64,000 bases of DNA from Candidatus Daviesbacteria bacterium (lineage in GTDB: Bacteria > Patescibacteriota > Microgenomatia > Daviesbacterales > UBA10151): NCBI GenBank assembly GCA_016176415.1, contig JACOXH010000003.1, positions 12,419 through 76,418 of the forward strand, written 5' to 3'. Made by a program: the position numbers and the translations under genes. This document shows positions 2,238 through 62,650 of this stretch, piece by piece. How positions within the stretch are numbered: position 1 is the stretch's first letter; every line of letters starts with the position of its first letter. Below the pieces are notes generated by a model that did not search any database, was not told where the DNA came from, and saw only the letters and a program-made list of their open reading frames with translations.

Positions 2238-3121
2238 ATAATTTAATGCGGTACAAAACTTTATATTTTATTCTGTCTTTGCTAATTATTCTGCCGGGCC
2301 TTTATTATTTGGTAACTTCAGGAGTGAAGCTGGGAATAGATTTTACAGGTGGGGCATTGCTTGAATATCAGTTTGAAAAAAGCATAAATTCAGATGAGTT
2401 AAAAAAAGAGATATCAAATAGGGGTATTGAAGTAGGTCAGGTTACTTCTTCATCTGAGAATACTTATATTATCAGAACAAAACCTATGGAGCAGGAGAAG
2501 ATAGGTAAATTAAAGTCTGATCTTAGTGAAAAATTTGGCAAGATAGAGGAGAGAAGAATAGAATTTGTAGGGCCTGTGATCGGTTCAGAATTAAGACAAA
2601 AAGCAGTAATTGGTATTGTGCTGGCCTCAATAGTGATAGTTTTGTATATTGCTTACTCTTTCAGAAAAATACCCAGACCTCAATCATCATGGCGTTTTGG
2701 GGTAGCAGCTGTACTGGCTTTAGTTCATGATATTTTGGTAGTGGCAGGAGCTTTTGCAATTTTAGGGCATTTTGCAGGAGTAGAAGTTGATACTTTGTTT
2801 GTAACAGCGCTTTTAACAATAATTGGTTTTTCTGTTCATGACACAATTGTGGTGTTTGACAGAATCAGGGAGAATTTGACAAAACACATAGGCAGGAAAT
2901 TCGTGGATGTAGCAAATCTTTCTATAGTTCAAACTATTGGCAGATCTTTAAACACGTCCTTAACCGTAGTATTTGTACTTCTTGCCCTGCTTTTATTTGG
3001 AGGAGAAAGCTTAAGGTGGTTTGTGGTGGCTTTGCTTGTAGGTATCGTTTCGGGAACTTATTCTTCAATTTTTAACGCCACAGCAATGCTTGTCTGGTGG
3101 GAAGAGCGGTTGGGTCATTAA
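2234..3121 (+). CDS. secF: Protein-export membrane protein SecF
   Basis: 'GIDFTGGALLEYQF' and C-terminal 6-TM region with 'FDRIREN' typical of SecF. Start overlaps upstream stop. Confidence 0.85.
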   Translation: MNNLMRYKTLYFILSLLIILPGLYYLVTSGVKLGIDFTGGALLEYQFEKSINSDELKKEISNRGIEVGQVTSSSENTYIIRTKPMEQEKIGKLKSDLSEKFGKIEERRIEFVGPVIGSELRQKAVIGIVLASIVIVLYIAYSFRKIPRPQSSWRFGVAAVLALVHDILVVAGAFAILGHFAGVEVDTLFVTALLTIIGFSVHDTIVVFDRIRENLTKHIGRKFVDVANLSIVQTIGRSLNTSLTVVFVLLALLLFGGESLRWFVVALLVGIVSGTYSSIFNATAMLVWWEERLGH

Positions 3122-4539
3122 GCGAGCTCTTTTATTCTGTTTAATAAGTAATCTTTATTGTTTTTTTCAGCGTTTTCTAAAACTTCTTCAAAAAGTTTTT
3201 GTAAAATTTCACCAATTTTAGGACCGGATTTAATATTTAATACCTCCATTATATCATTACCGTTTACTTTTAAATCTGAAATAGAAAATGGTTTTTGTAA
3301 AACCTGTTTAATTCTTTCATTGAATTTTTCCATTCTCCAAGAGACCGCTCTTTGTGTGCCTCCCCCCAGTCTGTCACCTATTCTCACTGCCATCATATCC
3401 TCAATATTTTCCAGCCCCACGTTATTAATAAAACGCCTGATGGCAGAATCAGTTTGATTTTCATCTACTGTAAAAAGATGCCATCTGACTAATTTGTATA
3501 ATTTATCAGTTTGTTTTTTGGATAAATTAAATCTTTGGGCAATTTGTAAAACTAACCTTCCTCCGTAAACATCATGGTTGTAAAAGGTAACATTGCCATC
3601 GCTTTCAGTTTTGACAGTTTGCACTTTGCCGATATCGTGTAAAAGTGCAGCTAATCTGACTAGGGAATTTTTTGATGGAGTATGCTGTAAAGTCATCAGA
3701 GAGTGTTCTCCTATATCGTAAACTCTGTCATGCTTGGGTCCTTGCTGCACAATACCAAAACATCTTTCCAGCTCAGGTAAAATAATTTGCAATATTCCTG
3801 CCTCCCTTAATTTGTTGATACCCTCAAGAGGGTTCTCAGCTGATAAAATTTTAAATAACTCATTTCTTACCCTTTCTTTTGCAATTTCCTCAATAAGTCC
3901 TGCATTTTCTTTTATTGCTTCAAAAGTTTTAATTTCTATCTCAAACTTTAATTGAGTAGCAATCCTTATTGCTCTTATCAACCTTAAGGCATCTTCTTTA
4001 AACCGATCATTGGGATTTCCAACAGTGCGAATGATTTTATCATGTATGTCTTTTTCTCCATGATAAGGATCTATGAGAGTCAAGTCGCTAGAATCTAGAG
4101 TCAAAGAGTTTATTTTCCTAGACTCTTGACTCTTGACTCTTGACTCTATACCCAAAGCAATAGCATTAATAGTAAAATCCCGTCTGGCTAAATCCTCTTC
4201 AATTTTATCAGTCCAGCCAACCTGGGCAGGGTGACGGAAATCTTTATAGTCACCCTCCTTCCTCATGGTAGTGACTTCGAAAACTTCCACCTCGGGGGAG
4301 TCAAAGCCCACCCCCGAGGTGTTCTTCGTCGGTATTCCCACAGTGCCGAATTTATTGTCGTAAAAGCCTTCAGGGATAATTTTTAAAATTTCCTCTGGTT
4401 TGGCATCAGTAGTAAAGTCCCAGTCGTTAACTTCTTTACCCATTAAAATGTCTCTGACTGCCCCTCCGACAATGTAAATTTGAAAACCGGCTTTTTGAAA
4501 CTTATTTAAAATATCTTCTACTTCTTTAGGTAAGTGCAT
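3118..4539 (-). CDS. cca: CCA-adding tRNA nucleotidyltransferase / poly(A) polymerase family with HD domain
   Basis: N-terminal 'IYIVGGAVRDILMG...DWDFTT' is the pol-beta nucleotidyltransferase head. C-terminal 'LAALLHDIGK' is the HD domain. Contains in-frame repeat insertions (see repeats). Confidence 0.75.
   Translation of the reverse strand: MHLPKEVEDILNKFQKAGFQIYIVGGAVRDILMGKEVNDWDFTTDAKPEEILKIIPEGFYDNKFGTVGIPTKNTSGVGFDSPEVEVFEVTTMRKEGDYKDFRHPAQVGWTDKIEEDLARRDFTINAIALGIESRVKSQESRKINSLTLDSSDLTLIDPYHGEKDIHDKIIRTVGNPNDRFKEDALRLIRAIRIATQLKFEIEIKTFEAIKENAGLIEEIAKERVRNELFKILSAENPLEGINKLREAGILQIILPELERCFGIVQQGPKHDRVYDIGEHSLMTLQHTPSKNSLVRLAALLHDIGKVQTVKTESDGNVTFYNHDVYGGRLVLQIAQRFNLSKKQTDKLYKLVRWHLFTVDENQTDSAIRRFINNVGLENIEDMMAVRIGDRLGGGTQRAVSWRMEKFNERIKQVLQKPFSISDLKVNGNDIMEVLNIKSGPKIGEILQKLFEEVLENAEKNNKDYLLNRIKELA
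4078..4147. repeat. Low-complexity insertion inside cca: inverted 'gagtcaag/cttgactc' plus 4 tandem heptamers 'gactctt'
   Basis: Direct reading: 4121-4147 gactcttgactcttgactcttgactct. Translates in-frame as 'ESRVKSQESRK'. Confidence 0.6.
4284..4321. repeat. REP-like hairpin copy (CCACCTCGGGGG-AGTCAAAGCCCA-CCCCCGAGGTG) inserted in-frame in cca
   Basis: Perfect 11-bp inverted repeat with 12-nt loop. Shares core CCACCCCCGAGGTG with the IS200-like element ends at 59000/59716. Confidence 0.7.
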
Positions 4540-6282: not shown

Positions 6283-7923
6283 TATGACAGTTTGTGCAAA
6301 AGCTGCTTCTTCAGGAGTTTGTGAAGACGCTGCTCTTTTGGGTAATCGCAGATCTAAAATAAGCGGACGGGGAGTTGAAAGCATTTCGTCGCAGGCGAGC
6401 GCTAAATCGTAGCAGGTACGCACCGTCCTTCCTTCTATGCCGTAAGTTGCCCCTAAAGCCGGAAAGTCAGGGTTTGTAAGGTCAGTTAACGAAGAATCAA
6501 CTCCAAATTCTCTGATCATGCCGTAGCCGCAGTCATTGTAGATTACTATTTTAACAGGTAGTTGGTATTGCATTATTGTGCCTAATTCCTGTATATTCAT
6601 CTGGAAGCCTCCGTCTCCCATTATCGCTATAATTCTTCTATCCGGAGAAGCAATTTGTGCACCTATGGCAGCCGGTAGAGCAAAGCCCATTGTTCCCATG
6701 CCTCCTGTGGTAATAAAGCTGCCGGGTCGTCTGAATCTGCCATACCGCGCAACTGACATTTGATGTGAGCCGGCATCGGATACAATGGTGTCGGTATCCA
6801 AAGTGTTTTCAAAAAGTAAGTTGGTTGCATCAGTTATTGTCAGATCATTATCTCCGGCTAACATTTTTCTGGTTTCCGTCATCGAAGAACTGTCGCTAAT
6901 ATAATTATCGAGCGGTTTTTCTATTGCCTGTTCTGCAAGGACAGGGAGTGCCAGTGCTAAATCTGCTCTGATCGTTAATCTGTCTCCCCTTCTTCTGTTA
7001 AGTCGGTTTGAGTCAATATCAATACGGATAATATCAGCCAGTCTGGTAGAATCAAGAATTTTTCCACTGACCCGATCGTCAAATTTCATACCAAGAGCTA
7101 AAATTACATCAGCTTCCTGCGCCAGTAAATTTGCTACCGGTCGTCCGTGTGTTCCTATCATGCCGACAAACAAAGGATGGTCAGAAGGTAAAGCAGATAA
7201 TCCATGAAGTGTGCTGGCTACACGAATTTGAGTTTTTTCAGTAAGCCTCCTAAGGTCAGAGACAGCTCCGGATAATAAGACTCCCTGACCTGTAATAATT
7301 AAAGGATTTTGGGCGTCATGCAGTATTTGGGCTGCTTCTTTCAGTTGTGCGTGTATTTCAGGAGTAAGTTCCGGTTTATCTGCTTTGGGAGGTATTTCTT
7401 TTTCAGGGAATAAAGTTTCGTGTATCTGCAGATCTTTTGGTATATCAATAAGTACCGGTCCCGGACGGCCATTGGTTGCAATTGTAAAAGCTTTATCCAA
7501 AACATAGGGAATTTCTTCCGGAATTTTAATCTGATAGCTCCATTTTGTGATATGACCTGACATTTCTACAATAGGAGCTTCCTGAAATGCTTCAGTTCCA
7601 AGTAACGATGTTGGTACCTGACCACAGATTACAATGATAGGTGTTGAGTCCCATTGTGCATCGGCAATTGCTGTTAGAGTATTAATTGCACCAGGACCTG
7701 AAGTTACCAATCCTACCCCCACTTTTCTTGCTTCTCGGGCATACCCTGAAAGGGCATGACCAAGTCCCTGCTCATGGCGGAATAAAAAACGATTTATCCT
7801 GTTGGATATCAAAGCCTCGCAGATAGGCAAATTTGCTGCTCCGGGTATCAGAAAAACATCTTTTATGTCGTGTTCCTTAAGAGTGTTTACTAAAGCTTCG
7901 GCTCCCGTTAGAGTGCGCCCCAA
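6241..7923 (-). CDS. Thiamine-pyrophosphate-dependent enzyme, acetolactate synthase large-subunit family
   Basis: N-terminal TPP-enzyme pyrimidine-binding domain 'GHALSGYAREARKVGVGLVTSGPGAINT'. C-terminal TPP-binding 'IMGDGGFQMNIQEL'. Confidence 0.75.
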   Translation of the reverse strand: MGRTLTGAEALVNTLKEHDIKDVFLIPGAANLPICEALISNRINRFLFRHEQGLGHALSGYAREARKVGVGLVTSGPGAINTLTAIADAQWDSTPIIVICGQVPTSLLGTEAFQEAPIVEMSGHITKWSYQIKIPEEIPYVLDKAFTIATNGRPGPVLIDIPKDLQIHETLFPEKEIPPKADKPELTPEIHAQLKEAAQILHDAQNPLIITGQGVLLSGAVSDLRRLTEKTQIRVASTLHGLSALPSDHPLFVGMIGTHGRPVANLLAQEADVILALGMKFDDRVSGKILDSTRLADIIRIDIDSNRLNRRRGDRLTIRADLALALPVLAEQAIEKPLDNYISDSSSMTETRKMLAGDNDLTITDATNLLFENTLDTDTIVSDAGSHQMSVARYGRFRRPGSFITTGGMGTMGFALPAAIGAQIASPDRRIIAIMGDGGFQMNIQELGTIMQYQLPVKIVIYNDCGYGMIREFGVDSSLTDLTNPDFPALGATYGIEGRTVRTCYDLALACDEMLSTPRPLILDLRLPKRAASSQTPEEAAFAQTVILHSKLPHSQVLNF

Positions 7924-10148: not shown

Positions 10149-11492
10149 ATGGAGAGAACATTAATTTTAGACTGTAATGAGAAAATTGATCAAACAGTAC
10201 ATATTTGTGGTTTTGTGCAAGTCAGGCGCGATCACGGAAAAATTGTATTTTTAGACATAGCTGACAGATCTGCTGTTATTCAGGTGGTAATATCGTCAGA
10301 TGCAATCCACCTCGAAGGAGTCAAAGCCCACCTTCGAGGTGATATTAGGCCGCAGGATGTTGTCTGTATAACAGGAAAAGTTAATAAACGCCCCGAACAC
10401 TTAATAAATAAAAATATCCCTACAGGCGGTATTGAGATTTTTGCTGAGAGTATTGAAGTTTTGTCAAAAGCATCAGAATTACCTTTTGACATGGGCGGAA
10501 AGGATCTGGATCTGCAGCTTCCCACTTTGCTGGATTACCGTTCTTTAACTTTGCGTCACCCAAAAATAAAATCAATTTTTAAAGTGCAGTCTGCAATTTT
10601 AGAAGGTTTTAGAAAAGCAGTAAAAGAGATTGGGTGTACTGAAATTGTAGTGCCCACTATTGTGGCAGGTTCTACAGAAGGAGGGGCAGAAGTGTTTAAA
10701 GTAGATTATTTTGAACACAAAGCATATTTATCCCAAAGCCCGCAACTTTATAAACAAATGTTGATACCGGTATTGGAAAGAGTGTTTACCATTGCCAAAG
10801 CATACAGAGCAGAACCTTCAGTCACAACCAGACATTTAACAGAGGTAACTCAAATGGATGTGGAAATTGGATTTACCAACTTTGAGGAACTATTGGATAT
10901 TTTGGAAAATACTGCCACAAATATGTTGGAGTTTTGCCAAAAAGAATGCGAAGATATTTTATCTGAATTTGGAGTGGAAAAAATTAGTATTGGAAAAATT
11001 CCCAGACTTACTTTAAGAGAAGCACAAGAGTTAATTTTAAAAGAGTTTGGCCGTGACAACAGAAAAGAGAAAGATTTAACACCGCAAGATGAAATTGATC
11101 TTTGTAAGTGGGCCAAAGAAAAACACGACAGTGATTTTGTGACGGTGACTCATTTTCCAACTAATGCCAAGCCTTTTTATACTATGCCTGACCCCAAAAA
11201 TCCTGAATATTCTCTAAGTTATGATTTGCTTTTCAGGGGGGTTGAGGTAATGAGTGGTAGTCAAAGGATTAATGATTATGGGCAGCTGGTAGATTCTATT
11301 AAAGGAAGGGGCATGGATCCGGATAGTTTTGAGATGTATCTTCAGGCTTTTAAATACGGCATGCCTCCTGAAGGAGGATTTTCTTTCGGTTTGGAAAGAG
11401 TAACAATGCATGTATTAAATCTTGCTAATATCAGAGAAGCTTCACTTTTTCCCAGAGATATGGAAAGAGTAGATACTAGATTAAGTAAGTGA
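10149..11492 (+). CDS. aspS: Class IIb aspartyl/asparaginyl-tRNA synthetase (archaeal/type-2 AspRS-like)
   Basis: N-terminal OB anticodon-binding domain. Class II motifs 'FRAE', 'GGFSFGLERV', C-terminal 'FPRD'. Size ~447 aa fits type-2 AspRS/AsnRS. Confidence 0.75.
   Translation: MERTLILDCNEKIDQTVHICGFVQVRRDHGKIVFLDIADRSAVIQVVISSDAIHLEGVKAHLRGDIRPQDVVCITGKVNKRPEHLINKNIPTGGIEIFAESIEVLSKASELPFDMGGKDLDLQLPTLLDYRSLTLRHPKIKSIFKVQSAILEGFRKAVKEIGCTEIVVPTIVAGSTEGGAEVFKVDYFEHKAYLSQSPQLYKQMLIPVLERVFTIAKAYRAEPSVTTRHLTEVTQMDVEIGFTNFEELLDILENTATNMLEFCQKECEDILSEFGVEKISIGKIPRLTLREAQELILKEFGRDNRKEKDLTPQDEIDLCKWAKEKHDSDFVTVTHFPTNAKPFYTMPDPKNPEYSLSYDLLFRGVEVMSGSQRINDYGQLVDSIKGRGMDPDSFEMYLQAFKYGMPPEGGFSFGLERVTMHVLNLANIREASLFPRDMERVDTRLSK
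10307..10341. repeat. REP-like hairpin copy (CCACCTCGAAGG-AGTCAAAGCCCA-CCTTCGAGGTG) in-frame in aspS
   Basis: Same loop and outer stem as 4284-4321 copy. Inner stem GGGG/CCCC replaced by AAGG/CCTT (compensatory). Confidence 0.7.
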
Positions 11493-15216: not shown

Positions 15217-15287
15217 TGCGGGATCATCTAACGGTAGGATACATGCCTCTGGAGCATGGCATCTTGGTTCAAATCCAAGTCCCGCAA
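15217..15287 (+). tRNA. tRNA-Gln (anticodon CUG)
   Basis: Manual fold: acceptor TGCGGGA/TCCCGCA, D-loop with GG, anticodon stem CATGC/GCATG with loop CTCTGGA (U33, anticodon CTG), T-arm CTTGG-TTCAAAT-CCAAG, discriminator A. CCA not encoded. Confidence 0.75.
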
Positions 15288-16046: not shown

Positions 16047-17714
16047 ATGGCACAACTACAATTTAAAGGAAAACAATTTGTACAAAATCATCATTTATCT
16101 GTTCCTTATCATGAGTTGATTCCCAAAAAGGATAAAAGTTTAACGGATAAAGTTAGCTTGCATGATAATTTAATTATTCATGGTGATAATCTAAAGGCAT
16201 TAAAAGCCTTACTCCCCACTTACGCTGGTAAAATCAAATGTATTTATATTGATCCTCCATATAACACAGGTAATGAGGGATGGGTTTACTCCGATAATGT
16301 TAATTCCCCAATGATTCAGGAATGGCTGAAGGCAAATAAACCAGTAGACAACGAAGACCTAACCCGTCATGACAAATGGCTTTGTATGATGACTCCACGA
16401 CTTAAACTTCTTAGAGAGCTACTAAAAGATGATGGTGTAATTTTTGTATCAATAGATGACAACGAAGTTCATCACTTACGAATGTTAATGGATGAAATTT
16501 TTGGAGCGGAAAACTTTATAGCCATACTTCCTACGATAATGAACCTAAAAGGAAATCAGGATCAATATGGTTTCGCTGGAACGCATGAATATATTGTTGT
16601 ATTTGCTAATTATAGAGATAAGTCTAAGGTAGGAGAGTTTAGTTTAAATAATTTAGAGGAAGAGGGGTGGGAGGAAGACGAGGTTAGTTATTTTAAAAAG
16701 GGCGCAAATCTAAAATCTTCAGGGGTTAATGCGCCTCGAGAGAAGAGACCCAACCTTTACTTTCCTATTTATATTACAAAGGATAACAATATTATCCTAA
16801 ATAGATCTTCTAAAGATGACTTAGAAATTTTCCCAGTTACTGACGGAAAAGAAATGTGTTGGCGATGGAGTAAAGAGAAAATGAAAAGCGAAACTTATGA
16901 TTTAATGGTTGCAAGAGAGGGGGATGTAGTTAGCATATACAAGAAACAGAGACCAGAATTAGGTGAGCTGCCCTCTAGAAAACCAAAATCACTATTTTAT
17001 AAACCGCAGTATAGTAGCGGTAATGGAACCAATCAAATAAAAACAATTTTTGGGGAGAAGGTTTTTGACAATCCTAAACCGCTTGAACTAATCAAAGATA
17101 TATTATCCATTTCAACTGACTCTGATTCAATAGTTTTGGATTCCTTCGCTGGCTCAGGAACTACAGCTCATGCTACGCTTGTCTTAAATAAAGAAGATGG
17201 TGGTAATCGTAAATTTATACTCGTTGAACTTGAAGATACTGTAGCAGATAAAATTACTGCTGAAAGAGTAAAAAAAGTTATCAAAGGTGTTCCAAGAGCG
17301 AGGAATGAGAATCTTAAAAATGGATTAGGTGGGACTTTTAGTTATTTTGAACTTGGGAAACCGATTGAGTTAGAAAGTATTCTTTCAGGAAGTAACTTAC
17401 CTACGTATAAAGAATTAGCTAGGTATGTATTTTATACTGCAACCGGTGAAGAATTTGACGAGAGTAAAGTTGATGAAGAGAAAAATTTTATTGGAGAAAG
17501 CAAAGATTATGAAGTCTACTTATTTTATAAACCGGATTTAGATTATCTTAAAAATACTGCATTAACTTTAGACCGTGCCAGATCTTTGGGTAAGCACAAC
17601 GGCAAAAAACGTCTTATTTTTGCTCCTGCAAAATATTTAGATCAAGATCATTTAGATGAACTAAGAATAGACTTTGCCCAGTTACCTTTTGAGATTTACA
17701 AACTAGCTAAATAA
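16047..17714 (+). CDS. mod: Type III restriction-modification system methyltransferase (Mod), N6-adenine/N4-cytosine beta-class
   Basis: Motif IV 'IYIDPPYNTG' precedes motif I 'DSFAGSGTTAHA'. 555 aa. Confidence 0.85.
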   Translation: MAQLQFKGKQFVQNHHLSVPYHELIPKKDKSLTDKVSLHDNLIIHGDNLKALKALLPTYAGKIKCIYIDPPYNTGNEGWVYSDNVNSPMIQEWLKANKPVDNEDLTRHDKWLCMMTPRLKLLRELLKDDGVIFVSIDDNEVHHLRMLMDEIFGAENFIAILPTIMNLKGNQDQYGFAGTHEYIVVFANYRDKSKVGEFSLNNLEEEGWEEDEVSYFKKGANLKSSGVNAPREKRPNLYFPIYITKDNNIILNRSSKDDLEIFPVTDGKEMCWRWSKEKMKSETYDLMVAREGDVVSIYKKQRPELGELPSRKPKSLFYKPQYSSGNGTNQIKTIFGEKVFDNPKPLELIKDILSISTDSDSIVLDSFAGSGTTAHATLVLNKEDGGNRKFILVELEDTVADKITAERVKKVIKGVPRARNENLKNGLGGTFSYFELGKPIELESILSGSNLPTYKELARYVFYTATGEEFDESKVDEEKNFIGESKDYEVYLFYKPDLDYLKNTALTLDRARSLGKHNGKKRLIFAPAKYLDQDHLDELRIDFAQLPFEIYKLAK

Positions 17715-51373: not shown

Positions 51374-51410
51374 TATCACACCTCGGAGGTGTGATAGAGG
51401 TGTGATAAAA
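51374..51410. repeat. REP-like palindrome TATCACACCTCGGAGGTGTGATA plus partial direct repeat (intergenic)
   Basis: Perfect 23-nt palindrome containing CACCTCGG/CCGAGGTG core. Confidence 0.6.
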
Positions 51411-51722
51411 AGCAAGATGGAAAATAAACAAATAGTAAGGTATGCTGAAAGTATGTTGGGATTTACATTAAAAAGATTTTTAATTACTTTAGGGGCAAGT
51501 GTAGGGGTATGGATTATATCTGCTATTATTCAGGCGTACTTAACTTTTGGGAAATATATAGGCACATTTTCAAGCGGTTGTCAGGTGACTGGATATCCAA
51601 TAGATGTGTGCGCATTAAGAGGTCCAGATATTCCTGCAATTTTAATCATTATTATTAATATCGTTTTTTGGTTTTGGGTTTTACATTTTATATTTAATTT
51701 GTTTAACAAACGCGCTAAATAA
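51402..51722 (+). CDS. Small membrane protein
   Basis: 106 aa, 3 TM. Confidence 0.3.
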   Translation: MIKSKMENKQIVRYAESMLGFTLKRFLITLGASVGVWIISAIIQAYLTFGKYIGTFSSGCQVTGYPIDVCALRGPDIPAILIIIINIVFWFWVLHFIFNLFNKRAK

Positions 51723-54644
51723 ACTAAAAGAAGCAAAAGATGCTACGCTCCCTGAAACTATAAGCAGCCCTCCAAGAATTTCTTTATAAGAATAACCAGT
51801 ATTTTGGTTTATTGATAATTGTTTTTGTTGATCTAGAAATCCCTCTTTATTTATCTGATCAGAAATTTCATCAGGGTTTTTAAAAGTAATTCCCAAAATA
51901 TCAGATTGAGAAAGTATAGAATCAGGAGATTGGTTTGTTTTACTGCCAATGTTCACCCCGGAGGTGTTAACCTGGTTACTGCTTGCGCCCACCTCCGGGG
52001 TGGTGCTGATGGAAGATGGTGCCGGAGTAGGTGATAGAGCAATTTGAATAGTAAAGGTTTGAGGGATTTCCTCATTTCCTAATTTGTCTATTGCCTTAAT
52101 TTGTAATGTAGTAGTACCGGGAGTTGAGATGGTAAAAGGTTCTGAATAAGTTTGAACAGTTTGGCCGTTATCTAAACTGTATTCAATTTTTAATATTCCT
52201 GCTTCTGTATCGCTGGCAGTTAGAGTAATGGTAACGGGTCCTGTATAAATACCTGAAGAGTTTTTAGTACCGGAGATTTGTATAGAAGTAGAAGGAGGGG
52301 TTTGATCTGTAGCTGCAGAACCGGTTACTTCACTGGTAGAAATAATAGTGGTGGTAGTTGAGCCCTGATAAAGATTTAGAGAAGGAGAGGTATCTAAAGA
52401 TGGATCAAGGTCAAATTCTATTTTATCTGCAAAAGAAATACTCAGATCTTTATAAAGAGTAGTTTTGGAGATTTTATCTTCTCTGTAAGTTCTTTTTTTA
52501 AGATTGGTAGTTTTAGAGCTGTTTGAAGGGTTTTTCCGGGTAGCTTTAACTTTTACTTTGGAAGCTTTCTTTTTTACAAAAGCATGTTTGGTATTACCGG
52601 AAGTAGTACAAGTTACGTCAGGAATATTTTCTTCGATTTCGCCATTATCATTTAATCCACAGTGGCGGTTTTGATCGTCATATAAATCAAGTTCTCCGTC
52701 ATCCAAAGTTAATTGCTCGCCTTCCAAACTTATTTTTTCGCTCTTAACCTGAACAGGAATAGCTAAATTATCATCATTTAAGATTCCTCTTACAGCTGCC
52801 ATTGCAGGACCGCTGCTATTAACAAGATCACTGTGCTTTTGTTCTACATAGTAAATTTGAGAAGCTCCGGAAATATCTAAAGAATCATTTTTTAAAGAAG
52901 CGCTATAAAGGGGGACAGTGCCGTCACCGTTAATAAAAATTTCATCTCTTTTTGTAATGAGATTAATTGGCCATGTGATCCACCAAGTTTCGTGAATTTG
53001 TCCTAAGGTAGGTTGTGATGTGCCAACTATTTCATATGCAATAACACCATTTGCTTGGTTAAGGGTGACATCAAGACTGTGAAATTGTTCTGCGATCCCA
53101 AAAGTAGTCATGTTGTAATTAAGATTTGTTAAAAGTGTTTTTATCTGATTAAAATTTAGGGAACCTGTAACGTTGTTATTATCAATATCGCGATCATCTT
53201 TAAAAGGATATAATATTTCATTCCTTGAGTTATCATAAAAATCAAAGTATTTGTTTGACGGTAAAAGTTGAAAAGCGCTCGAAAAATTTTGGAAAAGATC
53301 TTTAACTTCTGATGATGGAATACCGAGATAAAAATCTCCCAATATTTGCCTACCTAGAGGCTTGCCATACATCAGAGCTTTTGTAGCATCTACTGCTCCC
53401 AAATGGGGAACACCTAGTTCAATTAATTTATTTACCTTTGTAGCCTTTGAAGAATCTGAAATATAATACCTGGCTACTAAACCGCCCATGGAGTGAACAA
53501 CTAAATTTACCTGTGATTGTCCGGAGGCAATCCTGGCTGATTCTATTAAAGCATCTAAGCTGTCTTTTGTGCTTCTGACATCTTTTCTCCAGTCGTATGG
53601 AAAAACAAAAAAGTTTGTGCCCTTGTTATATCCCATTTCAGCAAAAAAGGAATCAATTTGCGAATAACCATCAGAAACTAAAGCTCCTGTTAAAGATAAA
53701 TCTGCTTCTGAAGTTACCCCATCAGATTTTAATTTCAATACATCAAAATAATCATCATTACCCAAGGCAGCTGCCTCATTTGTGTTAACCCAAATTTTTT
53801 CATCAGCTGTATATGCATGAGAATATGTTCCCCCGTGTCCATTATCAGCAGACCACACAATATCTTGAGTAGCTTTCATTTCTGATCCACCAATTCCGGG
53901 GATAAAAATTACAGGAAGTCTGGGCGGAGATGGTGGAGGAGAGTTGTTGTTTAAAACAAAGTATAAATCATTTTTATAGTAACCAAAAATATTACAACCA
54001 AAACTTGCAGTTTGTGAGTTCCAAATATAAGAGGAGGCATTACACACTCCATTATCAAAAGCATATCTGACTCCTCCTCCGGTGAAATAATCATTAGAGG
54101 TGCCGCTATAATTTGCAGTAGCAAGCTTCATTCTTTTGCCTCCCCATTGAGCTGCATTTGCATTTGTTAAAAGAATTAAATATCTGTGACCGAAAATAAA
54201 TTCATAATTTCTGCAGGAAAAATCTATGGTAACGTCTTCATACCCTGCAGGAACACCTGTAGTGGTAAATGTTAGACCTGTCAGTGGATCTGAGGCATTT
54301 GAGACACAGGGAATAGTGTATGAATTATTGTTGTCTTTATCGTAAATTTTAGTATTTAAACCAGCGAAATCAAACTGATCTATATTTGAAGCAGAAGTTG
54401 AAACCCTGAAAGTAAAATTTTCCAGTGTTCCTGAAAGGTTGTTTCCGAGTTCTTGAATTGCCTGCCAGACATTTAAAGTGGAATCGTATCCTTGTGTTTG
54501 TTCTGCTACAGAAACTGCATAAGATGGATGGGTGAAAGTCACAAAAACTCCTCCCAAAAGGGCAAACCCGAAAATTAGGGCAATTGGCAGTTTTTGATTC
54601 ACTTTTACTAAAATGATTGTTGATCGTGAAAAAGGGAAGCGCAA
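51681..54644 (-). CDS. Large (987 aa) secreted alpha/beta-hydrolase (lipase/PGAP1-like GxSxG 'VHSMGG') with C-terminal Ig-like domain and hydrophobic anchor
   Basis: N-terminal signal/TM, 'VIFIPGIGGSE', 'LVVHSMGGLVARYY', Thr/Ser-rich linker, beta-rich domain, C-terminal hydrophobic + basic tail. Confidence 0.55.
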   Translation of the reverse strand: MRFPFSRSTIILVKVNQKLPIALIFGFALLGGVFVTFTHPSYAVSVAEQTQGYDSTLNVWQAIQELGNNLSGTLENFTFRVSTSASNIDQFDFAGLNTKIYDKDNNNSYTIPCVSNASDPLTGLTFTTTGVPAGYEDVTIDFSCRNYEFIFGHRYLILLTNANAAQWGGKRMKLATANYSGTSNDYFTGGGVRYAFDNGVCNASSYIWNSQTASFGCNIFGYYKNDLYFVLNNNSPPPSPPRLPVIFIPGIGGSEMKATQDIVWSADNGHGGTYSHAYTADEKIWVNTNEAAALGNDDYFDVLKLKSDGVTSEADLSLTGALVSDGYSQIDSFFAEMGYNKGTNFFVFPYDWRKDVRSTKDSLDALIESARIASGQSQVNLVVHSMGGLVARYYISDSSKATKVNKLIELGVPHLGAVDATKALMYGKPLGRQILGDFYLGIPSSEVKDLFQNFSSAFQLLPSNKYFDFYDNSRNEILYPFKDDRDIDNNNVTGSLNFNQIKTLLTNLNYNMTTFGIAEQFHSLDVTLNQANGVIAYEIVGTSQPTLGQIHETWWITWPINLITKRDEIFINGDGTVPLYSASLKNDSLDISGASQIYYVEQKHSDLVNSSGPAMAAVRGILNDDNLAIPVQVKSEKISLEGEQLTLDDGELDLYDDQNRHCGLNDNGEIEENIPDVTCTTSGNTKHAFVKKKASKVKVKATRKNPSNSSKTTNLKKRTYREDKISKTTLYKDLSISFADKIEFDLDPSLDTSPSLNLYQGSTTTTIISTSEVTGSAATDQTPPSTSIQISGTKNSSGIYTGPVTITLTASDTEAGILKIEYSLDNGQTVQTYSEPFTISTPGTTTLQIKAIDKLGNEEIPQTFTIQIALSPTPAPSSISTTPEVGASSNQVNTSGVNIGSKTNQSPDSILSQSDILGITFKNPDEISDQINKEGFLDQQKQLSINQNTGYSYKEILGGLLIVSGSVASFASFSLFSAFVKQIKYKM
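51954..52002. repeat. REP-like inverted repeat CACCCCGGAGGTG ...23 nt... CACCTCCGGGGTG inside the 987-aa hydrolase gene (in-frame)
   Basis: 13-bp arms are exact reverse complements. Confidence 0.6.
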
Positions 54645-54769
54645 GAGAGATTAAAGGTGATTTAAAGTAACAAACAAATACACAGGCCCACCTGGAAGGT
54701 GAGCTTTGGCTCCTTCCAGGTGAACGGGAAGTCTTGCAAAAGAGGTTTGGGAAGTGATATAAAAGGGCA

Positions 54770-55541: not shown

Positions 55542-55982
55542 ATGAAATGCCCCTTTTGCAACAGTACTTTAAGTAAGGTTATCGATAAAAGGTCAGTGGA
55601 AAAACGCGGCCAAATCAGAAGAAGGAGAGAGTGTTTAAAGTGTTTTAAACGCTACACTACTTATGAGATGTGCGCACAGCTGGAAATTTTAGTTATCAAA
55701 AAAGACGGCAGCAAACAACCATATATAAGAGAAAAACTGGAAGTTGGGTTGACGAAAGCTTTGGAAAAAAGGCCGGGGATTGACAAGGTTTGCATACTGC
55801 TTGATAGAATAGAAAGCCGGATCAGGACACGGGGACTAAGTGAGGTTGCCTCGCAAATGTTGGGTAAGTGGGTCTTGTCGGAACTTAAAAAGTTGGACCC
55901 GGTTGCCTATTTGCGTTTTGCCAGCGTCTACCGGACTTTTTCTGACCCGAAAGACTTTAAAAAAGAATTGGAGACATTATGA
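55542..55982 (+). CDS. nrdR: Transcriptional repressor NrdR
   Basis: Zn-ribbon 'MKCPFCNSTLSKVIDKR...RRRECLKC' plus ATP-cone. Confidence 0.85.
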   Translation: MKCPFCNSTLSKVIDKRSVEKRGQIRRRRECLKCFKRYTTYEMCAQLEILVIKKDGSKQPYIREKLEVGLTKALEKRPGIDKVCILLDRIESRIRTRGLSEVASQMLGKWVLSELKKLDPVAYLRFASVYRTFSDPKDFKKELETL

Positions 55983-58555
55983 AAAAAACAAAAGCCACAT
56001 TACAAGTTGTAACAGCGCCAAGAATCCAAAGAGGCAAGAAAACTAATGGTCAGGTCAAGCCCAATGGTTTGGATCATAACAGCAGGACTTTTGAAACAAG
56101 GTTTATTCCCCGCTACAAAACTATTCCTCAGATGCCAGAGGGTTTGCCTGAACCTACTTTTTCTGAATCCTCCAATAAGATTTTATCTGAAAGATATCTT
56201 TTAAAGGGTGGCAATTTAGAAGTGGTAGAAAGCGTGGCTGAAAGATTTTGGCACATTGCTTATGATATTGCCTCCGGTGACTTTGACTTTAAAGTTTCTC
56301 AAAGCCAGGTTTTTGATATGGCCAAAGATTTTTATACCATGATGGTCAAACAGGAATTTTTACCCAATTCTCCTACAATCATGAATGCCGGTAAGCAAAA
56401 CGGTTTGCAGTATTCTGCCTGTTTTGTGTTGCCTGTTGGGGATTCTTTGCCGGAAATTTTTGATACCGTAAAGTATGCAGCCTTAATTCATCAAACAGGA
56501 GGAGGCACAGGTTTTTCTTTTTCCCGTCTTCGTTCTGCAGGCTCAATTGTTAACACAACCGGCGGCGTGGCTTCCGGGCCAGTTTCATTTTTACGGGTTT
56601 TTAATGCAGCCACTGAATCAATAAAGCAGGGGGGTACCAGAAGGGGGGCTAATATGGGTATTTTAAGAATAGACCACCCTGATGTTTTGGAATTTATCCG
56701 CTGTAAAGCAGAACTGGACGATTTAAACAAGCCAGTATACGAGAGAATTGCCCCGCTTTTATCTTCTGATGAAGCCAGGGATTTTGTAAAAACTTTGCTT
56801 TTGGACAAGCAAATATCCAATTTTAATATTTCTGTGGCTATAACTAATAAATTTATGGAAGCTTTGGCAAAGGAAGAAGATTATGAACTGATCAGTCCTC
56901 ATGATGGCAGCGTGGTTGGTAAATTAAATTCAAAAGAGGTATTTGATGAAATAGTGGAGAGGGCATGGAAAACAGGCGATCCTGGTTTGATTTTTATTGA
57001 CAGGATTAACAACTCCCCTGCCAATCCTGTACCTGGTTTAGAGCATATTGAAGCCACAAATCCATGTGGCGAACAGCCACTTGCACCTTGGGATGCCTGT
57101 AATTTGGGTTCTATAAATTTAGGAAAATTTGTGCTGGCAGACGGGATGGATGTGGACTGGGAAAAGTTAAGACAAATAACCCGTCAGGCTGTGCGCTTTT
57201 TGGATAATGTGGTACAAGCAAATCCTTTTACTCTAAAACAAATTTATGATCAAGTGCATAAAAACAGAAGGATTGGCTTAGGAGTAATGGGGTTTGCTGA
57301 TATGCTTTTTAAGTTAAAAATCCCTTACAACTCTGATGCTGCTTTGGAACTGGCTGCCAGAATAATGAAGTTTATTAATGAAGAAGGACACAAAAAATCA
57401 GAAGAGTTGGCTGAAGAAAAAGGCGCTTTTCCTAACTGGATTCACTCTATTTATGCCAAAGGCAACCCAATCAGAAATTCCACTATCACCACCATTGCTC
57501 CCACAGGTACTATTTCCATTATCGGTGATTGTTCTTCAGGGATTGAGCCTGTATTTGCTTTAGCTTACATCCACAGAGCCAAAGCTAAGGGTGACCAGTA
57601 CAGGACTTTAACTATTGCCAATCAGACATTTACAGATATTGCCAAAAGGGAAAGTTTTTATTCAGACGACCTGGCAGCTAAAGTATTGGAGCATGGTTCA
57701 GTCAGCGGGGTTGACGGCGTTCCCCAGGAATGGCAAAAGGTGTTTGTGACAGCTCCTGAAATTGATCCTGTTTGGCACGTTAAGATGCAGGCGGCTTTTC
57801 AACAATTTACTGATAACGGGGTTTCCAAAACCATTAACTTACCAAACAGCGCTACCCGTGACGATGTCAGAGATTCTTATATGCTGGCATGGGAAACAGG
57901 CTGTAATGGCATCACTATTTACCGTGATGGTTCCAAAAGTACTCAAGTATTAAATGTTTCTTCATCTTTGGATAGTCAGGTTGCTCAAGATGATTCGCAA
58001 GCGCCGGTAGCAGAAAGGCCAATGATTTTAAGAGGCAGGACTTATAAAATTTCTACCCCTGTAGGTGAAGCTTTTATTACTGTTAACCGTGATGAGCAGG
58101 ATCAGCCTTTTGAGGTATTCGTAACAGTGGGTCGGGCAGGAATGCACACTATGGCAGATGCAGAAGCCATGGGCAGGTTAGTTTCACTTTCTTTAAGACT
58201 GGCCAGAGGTGCCAAAGAAACAGATCCCAAAGCTGTGGCTTTGAAGATTGTAGACCAGCTCAAAGGAATAGGGGGAGCTTCATATGTGGGATTTGGTAAA
58301 AACAGGGTGATGAGTCTGGCTGACGCTATTGCCAAGGTTTTGGCAGAAGATTTGTCTTTAGGGTCTCAAGGGGAGATAATTGAAACAATACCTTTGAATT
58401 TAACTATGAACGGAAACAGTAATGATCCAGAGCCTTCAAGCTATGGTTCTCACTCCAAAACCAATGCTGATCTTTGTCCTGAATGCGGCAGCGCTTCCTT
58501 TGTAATGGAAGAAGGATGTAAGAAATGTCATAGCTGTGGATACAGCATGTGCTGA
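55979..58555 (+). CDS. nrdJ: Class II (adenosylcobalamin-dependent) ribonucleotide reductase NrdJ with C-terminal Zn-ribbon
   Basis: Active-site '[11 protein letters not shown]', 10-stranded barrel region, C-terminal 'CPECGS...CKKCHSCG'. Confidence 0.85.
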
Positions 58556-58950: not shown

Positions 58951-58999
58951 AGATATATTTTATCACTCTCTACTGTTGACTAACCCGACGTGCAGCTAC

Positions 59000-59738
59000 A
59001 CTTCCACCCCCGAGGTGGAAGTTAGGTGGAAGTTAATCTTCGCCATCTAAGAGCTGGTGTTTAATTAATTCCAATTCCTGCGCATAGCTAATTTGGTCGT
59101 CAGTAAACTTTTTATAATCTGCAACAGATTTAAAAAAATTAAGTATTTCTTCCTTTGTACATACTCCTTTACCATTCAAATATTCATTGTAAGATGACCA
59201 TTCATAATCCTCTGGTTTCTTGGTCAGAAACGAAGAAACAGAATTTAAGTGGATATATCTTGATACATGGACTAATTGTTCGTCAGATTCTATTAAGACA
59301 GCTTTAAATTGTCCCTGCAATAGAGGGCCAACTCTATTAAATTTAGTATTATAAAATTTAGTATAGCTATTGGTAAGCTTGCTAATAAATTCGCTTATAC
59401 CACCTTCTTTCAGTTGTTTTATCAGGAAATGAAAATGGTTAGGCATTAAGCAGTAACAGACGATGTCAACTATTTTTTTATTAGGATCAGGCTCGAATGA
59501 TTTATATTGGATAAAGTTTGAAAATTTCGGTTTAGGCCCTTCTAAGCGATAATAATTAATTGCCTGTAAAAATCGTGTATATGTTCTTCTGTTTTCATAT
59601 ATTCTTCTTTTTTCCACTCCACGGTTGTAAATGTGATAAAACTGACCGTTAATTAAAGGAATAATTCTTGCTGGCATAGATTTAGAATAAATAAAAATTA
59701 CCGAGGTGTCAATACACTTTCACCCCCGAGGTGGAAGT
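59000..59738 (-). mobile_element. IS200/IS605-like element: Y1 HUH transposase flanked by same-orientation subterminal hairpins ACTT(C/T)CACC-CCCGA-GGTGGAAGT
   Basis: Hairpins at 59000-59022 and 59716-59738, gene between. About 740 bp is typical IS200 size. Confidence 0.55.
59033..59677 (-). CDS. tnpA: IS200-like / REP-associated tyrosine (Y1, HUH) transposase
   Basis: HUH motif 'CLMPNHFHFLI' and catalytic Tyr region 'VSRYIHLNSV'. 214 aa (longer than canonical IS200 TnpA, like RAYTs). Confidence 0.7.
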   Translation of the reverse strand: MPARIIPLINGQFYHIYNRGVEKRRIYENRRTYTRFLQAINYYRLEGPKPKFSNFIQYKSFEPDPNKKIVDIVCYCLMPNHFHFLIKQLKEGGISEFISKLTNSYTKFYNTKFNRVGPLLQGQFKAVLIESDEQLVHVSRYIHLNSVSSFLTKKPEDYEWSSYNEYLNGKGVCTKEEILNFFKSVADYKKFTDDQISYAQELELIKHQLLDGED

Positions 59739-60329: not shown

Positions 60330-60806
60330 ATGTCTGATTTTATTAAACCTTCTGCGCGCGAACCTTTGAAACTTAAACCTACTTTACCTGTGGGTCCTTT
60401 AAGAGATACAGTAATTTTTCCCGGTAATTCTGTCCCGATTGTTTCAGGCAGGCCCAAATCTAAAGCCGCTTTGGATATTGCCTGGAATTCTGATAAACTA
60501 ATTGTTTTTGTTACCCAAAAAAACTCCCGTATAGAAGACCCTGTTGAAAAAGATTTATATAAAGTAGGAACTGTCTGTTTAATCAGAAGAGTGGTTAAAA
60601 ACCCTGAAGGTGAGTATACACTGCAGGCAGAGGGGTTAAGCCGTGTATTTTTGAAAAACTTTACAAAAATAGAGCCATATCTGGAGGCAGGGGTAATCCT
60701 TTCTTTGATCAAAGCAATTTTGCCAACTGGTCACTTTTTACTTACAGTGATGATCCGAATCAGTTGGTTAATTCTGTTACTCAGGCCATTGATTTTAAAA
60801 CCATAG
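60330..60806 (+). CDS. lon: Lon protease N-terminal (LON substrate-binding) domain fragment, frame-shifted relative to the rest of lon
   Basis: '[25 protein letters not shown]...KLIVFVTQK' is the Lon N-domain. Frame 0 ends in a non-Lon tail after ~60695. Confidence 0.6.
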
Positions 60807-62650
60807 ATAAACAGCAGATTTTAGAAATGGTTTCTGCTGCAGACAGGCTACAAAGATTATCAGAGCTTTTAGCTAAAGAAATCAGGATTTTAGAGATTTC
60901 CCAAAAAATTTCTTCCCAAACACAGGAAAGAGTTTCCAAGATGACCAAAGAGGCAATCTTAAGAGAGCAGATGAAAAGTATTGAGGAGGAGTTGGGGGGA
61001 GCAGATACAGAACATCAGGAAATAAGGGAATTCGAGCTGAAGATCAAAAAAGCAGGCATGTCTAAAGAAGTGCTGGAAAGAGCCAGAAAAGAGTTGGCAA
61101 GGCTTGCCAAAATGTCCTCATACAACCCTGAAGCAGGCTATATAAGAAATTATTTAGAGTGGCTGACAGATTTGCCCTGGAGAAATGAAAAGAAAAGCAG
61201 CGTAGATCTTAAAAAAGCAGAAGGAATTTTAGAAGAAGATCATTATGGTTTAAAAAAGGTCAAAGAAAGAATTTTGGAATATCTGGCAGTTTATAAGCTG
61301 GCAGGTAAAATGAGAGGGCCAATCCTTTGTTTTGTGGGCCCTCCGGGTACAGGTAAAACTTCCATCGGTAAATCAATTGCCAGAGCATTGGGCAGAAAAT
61401 TCATAAAAGTCTCTTTAGGAGGGATCAGGGATGAGGCGGAGATAAGGGGTCACAGAAGAACTTATGTAGGTTCTATGCCGGGCAGAGTTGTGCAGGGAAT
61501 AAAACAGGCAGGCGCTACAAACCCTGTATTTATGCTGGATGAAATTGATAAAATTGGCGCAGACTACAGAGGTGACCCTTCAGCAGCATTACTGGAAGCT
61601 TTGGATCCTGAACAAAATGAAGGATTTTCAGACCACTATCTGGAGGTGCCTTATGATTTGTCTAATGTGATGTTTATCACTACAGCCAATATTTTAGACA
61701 CTATTCCCCCGGCTTTAAGAGACAGATTAGAAGTTATAAGATATCCAGGTTATACAGAGGATGAAAAATTCCACATTGCCAAAAAATTCTTAATCCCCAA
61801 ACAGATGGAAAACCATGGCTTAAAAGGCGATAAGATAGAGTTTGAAGACGAAAGCATCCGCGCAATTATCCGGGGATATACCAGAGAAGCAGGAGTGAGA
61901 AATCTGGAAAGAGAAGTTTCAGCAGTATTTAGAAAAGTGGCGAGAAAAATTGCAGAAGGTGAAACCAAAAAATTCACTATTACCGTAAAAGATATTCATG
62001 GATTTTTAGGTCCAATTAAATTTCTGCCGATTTTGGCTGAGAAAGAAGATGAGATAGGGATGGTGACTGGTTTGTCTGTTACAGAAGCAGGCGGAGAGGT
62101 GCTGTTTATTGAAGTGACTTTAATGCCGGGTAAAGGCAACTTAATTCTTACGGGTCAGCTGGGAGACGTGATGAAAGAATCAGGACAGGCAGCCATGTCT
62201 TATGTCAGGTCTCGCTGGGCAAGCTTGGGGCTAAAGGAGAATTTCTTTCAAAAAGTTGACGTGCATGTGCATGTGCCGGAAGGAGCTATTCCCAAAGACG
62301 GTCCTTCAGCAGGTATTGCCTTAACTACCGCCATTGTTTCAGCATTTACAAAAGTTTCTGTACATAAGGAAGTTGCTATGACAGGTGAGGTAACTTTAAG
62401 AGGCAGGGTGCTGGAAATAGGCGGACTTAAAGAAAAAGTTTTGGCAGCTCACCGGGCCGGAGTCAAAATAGTGATTTGTCCGGCTGACAATGAAAAAGAC
62501 ATGGAAGATATTCCTGATTATGTACAAAAAGATTTAAAATTCTTCTTTGTCAAACATATGGATGAGGTTTTAAAAGTGGCTCTTATCAGGCCTCCTCAAC
62601 CGGCATCCCGTAAAAGTGTCCCAATCCCCCCTCCGGCCTATATGGCTTGA
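60764..62650 (+). CDS. lon: ATP-dependent Lon protease (AAA+ and S16 protease domains); upstream in-frame sequence also Lon-like back to ~60695
   Basis: Walker A '[15 protein letters not shown]', 'FMLDEIDK', catalytic '[10 protein letters not shown]'. Track start is TTG at 60764. Confidence 0.8.

Follow-up and report, generated by a model that had tools for sequence, protein, structure and literature searches.

A RAYT-like Y1 transposase gene and small REP-like inverted doublets within coding sequences of Candidatus Daviesbacteria

Candidatus Daviesbacteria belong to the Microgenomates within the candidate phyla radiation (CPR). In a 64-kb stretch from one of them, a groundwater bacterium with a tiny genome (contig JACOXH010000003.1, GC 38%; hereafter the window, meaning this whole stretch) we find a Y1 transposase gene of the HUH type that is bracketed by small hairpins, together with related palindromes that lie in frame within housekeeping genes. 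We think that the locus is probably a REPtron-like unit, in which a vertically inherited Y1 gene of the REP-associated tyrosine transposase (RAYT) type is bracketed by cognate repetitive extragenic palindromic (REP) hairpins with the core CACC-N5-GGTG, where N5 is the 5-nt hairpin loop. Related cores would then have been dispersed, mostly as minimal inverted doublets (mini-REPINs, from REP doublets forming hairpins), and mobilised by the Y1 family. Below we give the evidence for this reading and weigh it against the alternatives.

Results

The preliminary description of this DNA, drawn from its letters alone, had named a 214-aa HUH/Y1 transposase, and profile and fold comparisons uphold that assignment. 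The Y1 protein, like the AspRS and the CCA enzyme of the window, has a 100% identical counterpart on a 122-kb NCBI contig annotated as Candidatus Daviesbacteria. The protein matches Pfam PF01797 (Y1_Tnp) over residues 67-143 with 30.8 bits, above the threshold of 23; its HUH motif is H81-F82-H83, and its catalytic tyrosine is Y141 in SRYIHLNP. H81-F-H83 and Y141, and with them Y14, H15, N18 and R19, are invariant across 51 homologs with identities down to 42%. A single-sequence phmmer search against the PDB returned only noise, and a profile built from the 51 sequences was required: its top match is 4ER8, the E. coli TnpA-REP protein (E=1e-3), followed by ISDra2 TnpA (1.4e-2). When the AlphaFold2 model (predicted local distance difference test score, pLDDT, of 88) was compared with solved structures in Foldseek, 4ER8 again came first (E=1.4e-6, against 2.4e-4 for the IS-type TnpA) and was followed by the IS608, ISDra2 and IS200 transposases; the Foldseek probability of 1.00 against 4ER8, 2VJV, 2A6M and 2XO6 indicates a HUH fold. 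Because 4ER8 is the best relative by both profile and fold, while the match to the RAYT equivalog model stays under its cutoff (see below), the protein appears to be a Y1 HUH nuclease-transposase nearest the RAYTs, yet a distant member of that group.

The same hairpin stands on both sides of the gene in direct orientation, as had been reported. Both copies lie on one strand inside a 38-nt direct repeat (Table 1), and the 3' arm of the 59000-59022 hairpin recurs once at 59025-59033. Just upstream of the Y1 ATG is a putative promoter, suggested by its match to the consensus, which sits within a conserved GTATTGACACC motif that is common to the flanks of several Y1 orthologs. A GTAG tag was considered as a defining feature and rejected, as the GTAG beside the 59000 hairpin stands on its wrong side and other loci do not conserve it; on the gene strand, the Y1 flanks of the window have GTAG or GTAT 3' and not 5' of the hairpin. 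No known RNA family in Rfam matched at any hairpin.

A scan of one genome per species gave 566 relatives, and the analysis covers the best 79 of these loci (1.29 Mb); individual loci are numbered with the prefix L. Nearly all of these 79 have a shared string on both Y1 flanks, mostly a small hairpin, and this string is usually in direct orientation and in some loci only inverted. The hairpin sequence varies by lineage, with CACC-TCGGG-GGTG, CACC-CTTGG-GGTG, CACA-TCGGG-AGTG, AACC-TCGAA-GGTT and CAAACC-CGG-TTTG among the forms seen. The gene order around Y1, Lon-CobA-Y1-RNR (RNR, ribonucleotide reductase), is identical in 14 other genomes of the Daviesbacteria group, whose orthologs are 63-86% identical. 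Because it holds the same position in all of these genomes, the Y1 gene is vertically inherited and not a jumping insertion sequence (IS); it is domesticated. Y1 paralogs at 62% identity or less are located elsewhere, some genomes have two or three Y1 genes, and the paralogs inside one genome are 45-62% identical and carry different hairpins. In locus L012 the Y1 gene, of 66% identity, is found at another position, outside the Lon-CobA-Y1-RNR slot. In L037 the CobA-RNR gap lacks a Y1 gene (the Y1 gene of this locus is about 5 kb away) and holds a solo REP; at about 14040 in this slot one REP and one GTATTGACACC unit remain. Such a remnant is what would be left after recombination between the flanking direct repeats, or after excision.

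These observations bear on the possibility that hairpin, gene and hairpin together form an active autonomous IS of the IS200/IS605 type, the palindromes being deletion derivatives like MITEs (miniature inverted-repeat transposable elements). One might expect as much from the Y1 transposase fold, from subterminal hairpins that are direct on one strand like IS200/IS605 ends, and from the two or three gene copies in several genomes. The synteny of the orthologs argues strongly against it, however, and paralogs as diverged as those within single genomes, with their different hairpins, are not recent copies. No tnpB partner was found among the ORFs (open reading frames) of the window, and the protein is nearer to TnpA-REP than to the TnpA of IS200/IS608. 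We regard an active IS as extremely unlikely. Where the preliminary description had left the choice between an IS200/IS605 element and a RAYT, the RAYT-like identity stands and the mobile IS200/IS605 copy does not.

Allowing up to 2 mismatches, we count 9 occurrences of the core CCACCCCCGAGGTG within the window where 0.07 would be expected, and 6 perfect GC-rich hairpins whose stems reach 9 bp or more, compared with 0.4 in shuffles; shuffle and permuted-control counts rule out a chance origin for this excess of motif and hairpins. All of the window hairpins fold as single-stranded DNA (z scores of -2.8 to -6.9), with folds of -12 to -14 kcal/mol for the 34-nt doublets (z -4.4 to -6.9). The four further sites that had been listed for the hairpin core all exist, and two elements had been overlooked: a third 34-nt copy in the opposite orientation (54689-54722), located between the start of the 987-aa gene and a cyclophilin gene, and a second insert in cca (4076-4148). 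The dispersed units had been described as copies of the end-hairpin. They do consist of REP cores, but the intragenic units are inverted doublets, REPIN-like, and not copies of the single end-hairpin, and only the cca unit has the local N5 class.

The cca and aspS copies have in common the loop AGTCAAAGCCCA on perfect 11-bp stems that differ as GG/CC against AA/TT, and both preserve the reading frame of their host; on each of these points the preliminary description was right. The cca doublet encodes T74-V84, read through as NTSGVGFDSPEV; its N5 is of the class of the local Y1-flanking hairpin and its arm is identical to the hairpin core, which within the window is found again only here. The aspS doublet is read through as HLEGVKAHLRG. 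The three 34-nt copies of the window represent three different N5 classes. The 49-nt doublet lies in the S/T-rich C-terminal linker of a 987-aa LCAT-like hydrolase (51681-54644, minus strand), where it reads TPEVGASSNQVNTSGV, and the intergenic singlet at 51376-51405 has the layout of the 59000 site. The 4076-4148 insert of cca belongs to a different repeat family and encodes approximately residues 134-150, roughly VKSQESRKINSLTLDS.

Table 1. Coordinates of the features discussed, in window numbering (N5, 5-nt hairpin loop)
Feature	Position	Strand	Details
RAYT-like HUH/Y1 tyrosine transposase gene	59033..59677	-	214-aa ORF; profile, fold, synteny
REP hairpin 3' of Y1 gene, ACTTCCACC-CCCGA-GGTGGAAGT	59000..59022	+	DNA fold -9.2 kcal/mol, z=-3.5
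REP hairpin 5' of Y1 gene, ACTTTCACC-CCCGA-GGTGGAAGT	59716..59738	+	DNA fold -5.7 kcal/mol, z=-2.8
38-nt direct repeat bracketing Y1 gene	58985..59022 (left) and 59701..59738 (right)	+	local alignment
Promoter-like site TTGACA-17-TATTCT	59684..59712	-	consensus scan 10/12; in upstream repeat unit
34-nt inverted REP doublet in cca, N5=TCGGG/CCCGA	4288..4321	+	in frame; cca = 3118-4539 (-)
34-nt inverted REP doublet in aspS, N5=TCGAA/TTCGA	10308..10341	+	in frame; aspS = 10149-11492 (+)
Third 34-nt doublet, N5=TGGAA/TTCCA, loop variant AGCCAAAGCT	54689..54722	-	intergenic
49-nt doublet CACCCCGGAGGTG-23 nt-CACCTCCGGGGTG	51954..52002		in frame in 987-aa gene
Intergenic REP singlet TCACACCTC-G-GAGGTGTGA	51376..51405	+	followed by TA and a repeated 3' arm
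Further in-frame palindrome in cca (about 70 nt), AGAGTCAAG.../...CTTGACTCT	4076..4148		inverted repeats

Aligned copies from the window and the related loci define an element of exactly 34 nt between unrelated flanks, CACC-N5-GG-AGTCAAAGCC-CACC-N5'-GGTG, which consists of two inverted 13-nt REP cores and an 8-nt spacer and equals an 11-bp stem with a 12-nt loop. The same arms occur with other spacers, at 51954-52002 in the window and in copies in L004, L017, L024, L030, L034, L036 and L056, and doublets with different stems also occur among the related loci. L021 has identical 38-nt doublets (CACTCCCGGTGTG-GAATTGACTTGA-CACACCGGGAGTG) at 7434-7471 and 16058-16095, in two different long ORFs, and no other finding points as clearly to recent spread into coding DNA. 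Overall, 1.35 Mb of sequence contains 173 occurrences of CACC-N5-GGTG, compared with 7-13 for permuted controls. The related loci hold 61 GC-rich hairpins whose stems reach 10 bp or more, where shuffles give 6, and half of the 61 are in ORFs of at least 200 aa.

The preliminary description had looked to further copies elsewhere, and these were found: one more in the window, others in related genomes, and at least 120 copies in 104 distinct contexts in a metagenome scan whose query, CACCNNNNNGGAGTCAAAGCCCACC, left the right arm free. Viral contigs gave 0 matches to the element and so no sign of phage carriage. Among the matches listed, the free 9-nt right arm is exactly complementary in 89 of 118 copies and has one mismatch in 22; the same matches show 19 N5 variants, the commonest of which (counted with the reverse complement) are TCCGA/TCGGA with 36, TCGAA/TTCGA with 24 and TTCCA/TGGAA with 21, followed by TCGGG/CCCGA with 13 and CCCGG with 7. 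All five variable pairs change on both sides across 108 copies, giving 59 two-sided-change cells against 18.5 in shuffles, and none of 500 shuffles reached the observed covariation score. Single arm mismatches, as a sign of strand-specific wobble, divide into 6 G.T and 3 A.C, counts too small for inference.

Among the matches listed, 67 of these 104 contexts fall within stretches that stay open for 150 codons or more and extend at least 15 codons beyond the element in either direction. Because the in-ORF rate of the elements (64.4%) equals that of random 34-nt windows of the same contigs (66.2%), the elements do not avoid coding DNA. The metagenomic doublets are found in both orientations, and between genes too. 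Four reading frames are used within ORFs (TS.ESKPT.EV 25, HL.GVKAHL.G 19, TS.VGFDS.EV 18 and SP.RSQSPP.R 5, among the matches listed); one frame of the element contains a stop, and the unit is open in 5 of 6 frames. Matches of the host ORFs extend to 107 Pfam families, among them TsaD, AspRS, PurL, YchF, MiaA, FtsJ, TatD and M24 peptidase. In the 5' flank of the 104 contexts from the matches listed, T stands at -2 in 66 and a pyrimidine at -1 in 90, and the full unit, counting this 5' TY, is probably 36 nt or 12 codons.

Comparison with orthologs indicates that the palindromes are lineage-specific insertions, not ancestral loops, which is how the preliminary description had read them. In AspRS, the loop is short and free of inserts in about 100 of 120 orthologs, including the closest, P0122 (84% identity). 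Palindrome-type inserts of several kinds and frames are present at that loop in about 20 of the 120 (HLEGVKAHLRG, TSKESKPTFEV, VHLGGVMASQAQPATIRG, HLRGVGQTESKSHLGG and others), and P0132 has a partial remnant, AHLRG only. At the nucleotide level, the aspS doublet is missing from the closest ortholog, L081, and excising exactly 36 nt from aspS regenerates the AAT codon of the empty ortholog. In a neighbour-joining tree of AspRS the insert-bearing sequences do not form a clade; the tree is star-like and cannot separate recurrent insertion from inheritance with loss.

In CCA, where the baseline loop is FGTVG-LETKLGI-FEITT, inserts are present in about half of 120 orthologs and roughly half lack one. 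A second hotspot after residue 134 holds the window's palindrome of about 70 nt, which is common to L083 and absent in L085. L084 and L086 have other palindromes at this second hotspot, of the 'IASE..KQS / ..VRND' type. In the structural model of CCA, pLDDT falls below 50 only in residues 74-83 and 134-150, exactly the two inserts; both are between beta-strands (residues 74-83 between strands 66-70 and 86-91), and both are predicted to occupy disordered loops. In the 987-aa hydrolase, four genomes have different doublets at different positions of the S/T-rich linker.

AspRS offers two further observations. The aspS ortholog of L084 (10001-11386) has, directly after the intact element, a second and decayed doublet-like stretch (...CAGGTGCAACGCTACCTGGAAGGTG...), giving HLEGVKAHLRGEELQVQRYLEGG and suggesting tandem or nested insertion. 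After residue 281 (window numbering), 9 of 120 orthologs, not including that of the window, carry an insert of 6-9 aa, GSPRSAGGA or similar, which may represent yet another palindromic family.

A connection between the Y1 enzymes and the dispersed elements is suggested by copies that exactly match the Y1 hairpin of their own locus in L005, L019, L054, L062 and L080. These matches include unusual hairpin classes, such as CACATCGGGAGTG in L005, where the arms of an in-ORF doublet equal the unusual hairpin of the local Y1 gene. The N5 classes that dominate among the doublets (TCCGA, TCGAA, TTCCA, TCGGG, CCGGG) are classes that flank Y1 paralogs, and the Y1 gene of L037 has as its upstream flank a 13+12+13 doublet, a layout shared by the intragenic doublets of L021.

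It is also possible that the in-frame palindromes form a mobile family of their own, comparable to the Rickettsia palindromic elements (RPEs) or the CGTC REPs, that is not moved by Y1, the likeness to the Y1 hairpins then being only a shared preference for CACC/GGTG stems. Such a family would fit the finding that the loop AGTCAAAGCC does not occur beside the Y1 gene and that most doublets near a Y1 gene carry another N5 class, and CGTC REPs have been reported without a dedicated transposase (PMC3733652). A stem preference would have to stretch, however, to exact arm matches with the own-locus hairpin, rare stems included (L005 with its CACATCGGGAGTG, L062, L080 and L054), to the identity between the cca doublet arm and the local hairpin core, and to the layout that L037 and L021 have in common. 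The own-locus enrichment of Y1-flank 13-mers, 10.4 per Mb in their own locus against 3.25 per Mb across loci, likewise points to a Y1 link, and we consider a separate family unlikely; at 3.2-fold from 11 matches, the enrichment is modest.

That modest enrichment is one of several observations that weigh against the REPtron-like reading. The mixture of N5 classes near Y1 genes just mentioned is another: only 1 of 5 window elements (that in cca) has the N5 class of the local Y1 hairpin, and in 4 metagenome contigs where a Y1 gene and a 34-nt element occur together, no N5 match was found between them. The non-matching classes would have to be served by Y1 paralogs elsewhere in each genome. The canonical 5' GT[AG]G guide of REPs is absent, and against the RAYT equivalog model NCBIfam NF047646 (REP_Tyr_transpos) the protein scores 50.9 bits, under the cutoff of 80. 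A last point concerns sequence conservation in aspS. At the same codon, the window, L083 and L084 carry elements that are 34/34 identical, and L082 has 33/34; the aspS genes carrying the identical element have 73-77% nucleotide identity, with 46-54% identity at third positions. Such identity amid roughly 50% divergence at synonymous sites is not what one would predict if a selfish element had simply inserted and then decayed neutrally.

A related pattern is seen in cca, where the element is 34/34 identical in L085 (gene 72% identical) and absent in L083, and where L086 has at the same site a compensated double change from TCGGG/CCCGA to TCGGA/TCCGA. The aspS and cca identities may reflect reinsertion at hotspots in recent times, homogenisation, or selection that acts on the DNA itself. 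A further possibility is that the intragenic hairpins are immobile, being old vertical insertions kept by the host for their DNA or RNA structure, for example as a protein-binding site or a translational pause. Besides the conserved copies and the compensated change at the cca site, this possibility can draw on flanking features that the insert-bearing AspRS share and on partial remnants such as that in P0132. Immobile hairpins are nevertheless difficult to square with 104 unrelated contexts (from the matches listed) and 107 Pfam families, with both orientations, four frames and intergenic positions, or with most orthologs being without elements. Because the same loop holds the element in different frames across lineages (HLEGVKAHLRG against TSKESKPTFEV), independent insertions are required, and the identical doublets in two genes of L021 speak the same way. 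We judge immobility to be very unlikely.

Three other features of the window lie outside the elements. Lon (60330-62650) is split into two overlapping ORFs (60330-60806 and 60764-62650); compared with its 807-aa ortholog in L002 it lacks residues 118-153 and changes frame near 60680-60692, which could reflect a pseudogene, a deletion or an assembly error. At 55542-58555, a gene for an NrdR repressor adjoins that for the 858-aa ribonucleotide reductase, whose C-terminus is a Cys-rich, zinc-ribbon-like tail (CPECG...CKKCHSCG). A tRNA gene (15217-15287, plus strand) is the only Rfam match within the window.

Discussion

How might a REPtron-like unit have given rise to palindromes inside proteins? 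By analogy with E. coli TnpA-REP and the TnpA proteins of IS608 and ISDra2, we infer that the Y1 enzyme family mobilises the doublets: the enzyme would bind the small hairpin on single-stranded DNA, cleave it by means of the HUH-bound metal and the catalytic Tyr141, and move or copy the doublet. The same analogy leads us to propose that N5 is the recognition code, with the 5-nt hairpin loop acting as the specificity determinant that is read by different Y1 paralogs. Coding insertions would not cause frameshifts because the unit spans 12 codons and has 5 of its 6 frames open. Selection would retain those insertions that land in tolerant surface loops, with the consequence that elements would be as frequent in genes as at random positions.

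We also entertain, as an outside chance, a more active version of events in which the 34-36-nt cassette is maintained: N5 would be an exchangeable address for cognate Y1 paralogs, and 12-codon cassettes would be repeatedly excised and re-inserted, or homogenised, at the same permissive loops. Active maintenance would explain why the arms are perfectly compensated across 19 N5 classes around a spacer that does not vary, as well as the 34/34-nt identity at orthologous codons whose synonymous sites are saturated and the coding occupancy at the random level. If it were true, it would amount to a domesticated single-stranded-DNA-editing system that writes into the proteins of a minimal genome.

Whichever way the doublets move, there are reasons to care about them. 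Work on RAYT/REPIN systems has been confined almost entirely to Proteobacteria, in which the repeats are by definition extragenic, and in-frame palindromes such as the RPEs of Rickettsia have no known mobilising enzyme. The CPR case is a compact, sequence-defined system in which a Y1 family and 34-36-nt doublets appear to have a common hairpin code. Natural N5 variants with compensated arms make it testable with oligonucleotides and one small protein, and one could ask what a RAYT reads in its hairpin and how palindromes enter proteins harmlessly. The inserts account for some of the variation in length among the housekeeping proteins of CPR genomes, and they are a source of spurious differences in CPR alignments and phylogenies.

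The closest known system is that of the RAYT/TnpA-REP proteins (E. coli YafM/RayT, 4ER8; Nunvar 2010, PMC2817692; Bertels and Rainey 2011, PMC3116915; Quentin 2018, PMC6006769). REPtrons, REPINs and multiple RAYT paralogs, each with its own REP family, are established (PMC2817692, PMC3116915, PMC6006769). Our locus has in common with them a single-locus, vertically inherited Y1 HUH gene with its own hairpin flanks, a separate hairpin class for each paralog, and dispersed inverted doublets able to form a long hairpin, and the best solved structural relative of the Y1 protein belongs to this group. The differences are substantial nonetheless. Canonical REPs bear a 5' GT[AG]G tag at the hairpin foot (PMC6006769, PMC3733652), whereas the Daviesbacteria elements have only T(-2) Y(-1) in the 5' flank, and their hairpins are much smaller, with a 4-5 bp stem and a 3-5 nt loop, in doublets of 34-36 nt. 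The Y1 protein is under the NCBIfam equivalog cutoff, the flanking hairpins are direct, and the elements, unlike REPs, do not avoid coding DNA; the host, moreover, is a CPR bacterium. They also stand apart from the GTAG and CGTC REP superfamilies (Di Nocera 2013), having neither tag and instead CACC...GGTG ends with a TY 5' flank. With the TnpA of IS200/IS605 elements (IS608, ISDra2) the Y1 protein shares the Y1 HUH fold, and the locus shares small subterminal hairpins in direct orientation on one strand. It differs from those elements in its syntenic position, in having no identical copies and in being without tnpB, and from their TnpA in an extra N-terminal YH.YNRG motif and a C-terminal WSSY motif with a helical tail.

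Within genes, the comparison is with intragenic REPs and with the RPEs (Ogata 2000; Di Nocera 2013, PMC3733652). In-frame intragenic REPs, often as dimers, are known from Opitutus terrae, Rickettsia conorii (RPE-4/-6) and Thauera, and also inside tnpAREP genes (PMC3733652; PMC6006769). Like them, the elements described here are in-frame palindromes, often dimers, in housekeeping proteins at presumed loop or linker sites, and some genes are hit twice. RPEs, on the other hand, are 105-146 nt long and have no known transposase; the likeness is functional only, and a relation in sequence is not expected. Published intragenic REPs come from families that are mostly intergenic, whereas here the in-ORF fraction equals the random expectation, and the present family has a fixed spacer with interchangeable, perfectly compensated arms. 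In the open-access literature we found no report of REP or RAYT in CPR or Microgenomates. The preliminary description had called an in-frame, intragenic RAYT/REP system unusual, and this holds for lineage and extent but not for the principle, which published cases already established (PMC3733652; PMC6006769); the novelty of the Daviesbacteria elements is in where they occur and how far they have spread, and not in the principle of in-frame intragenic REPs.

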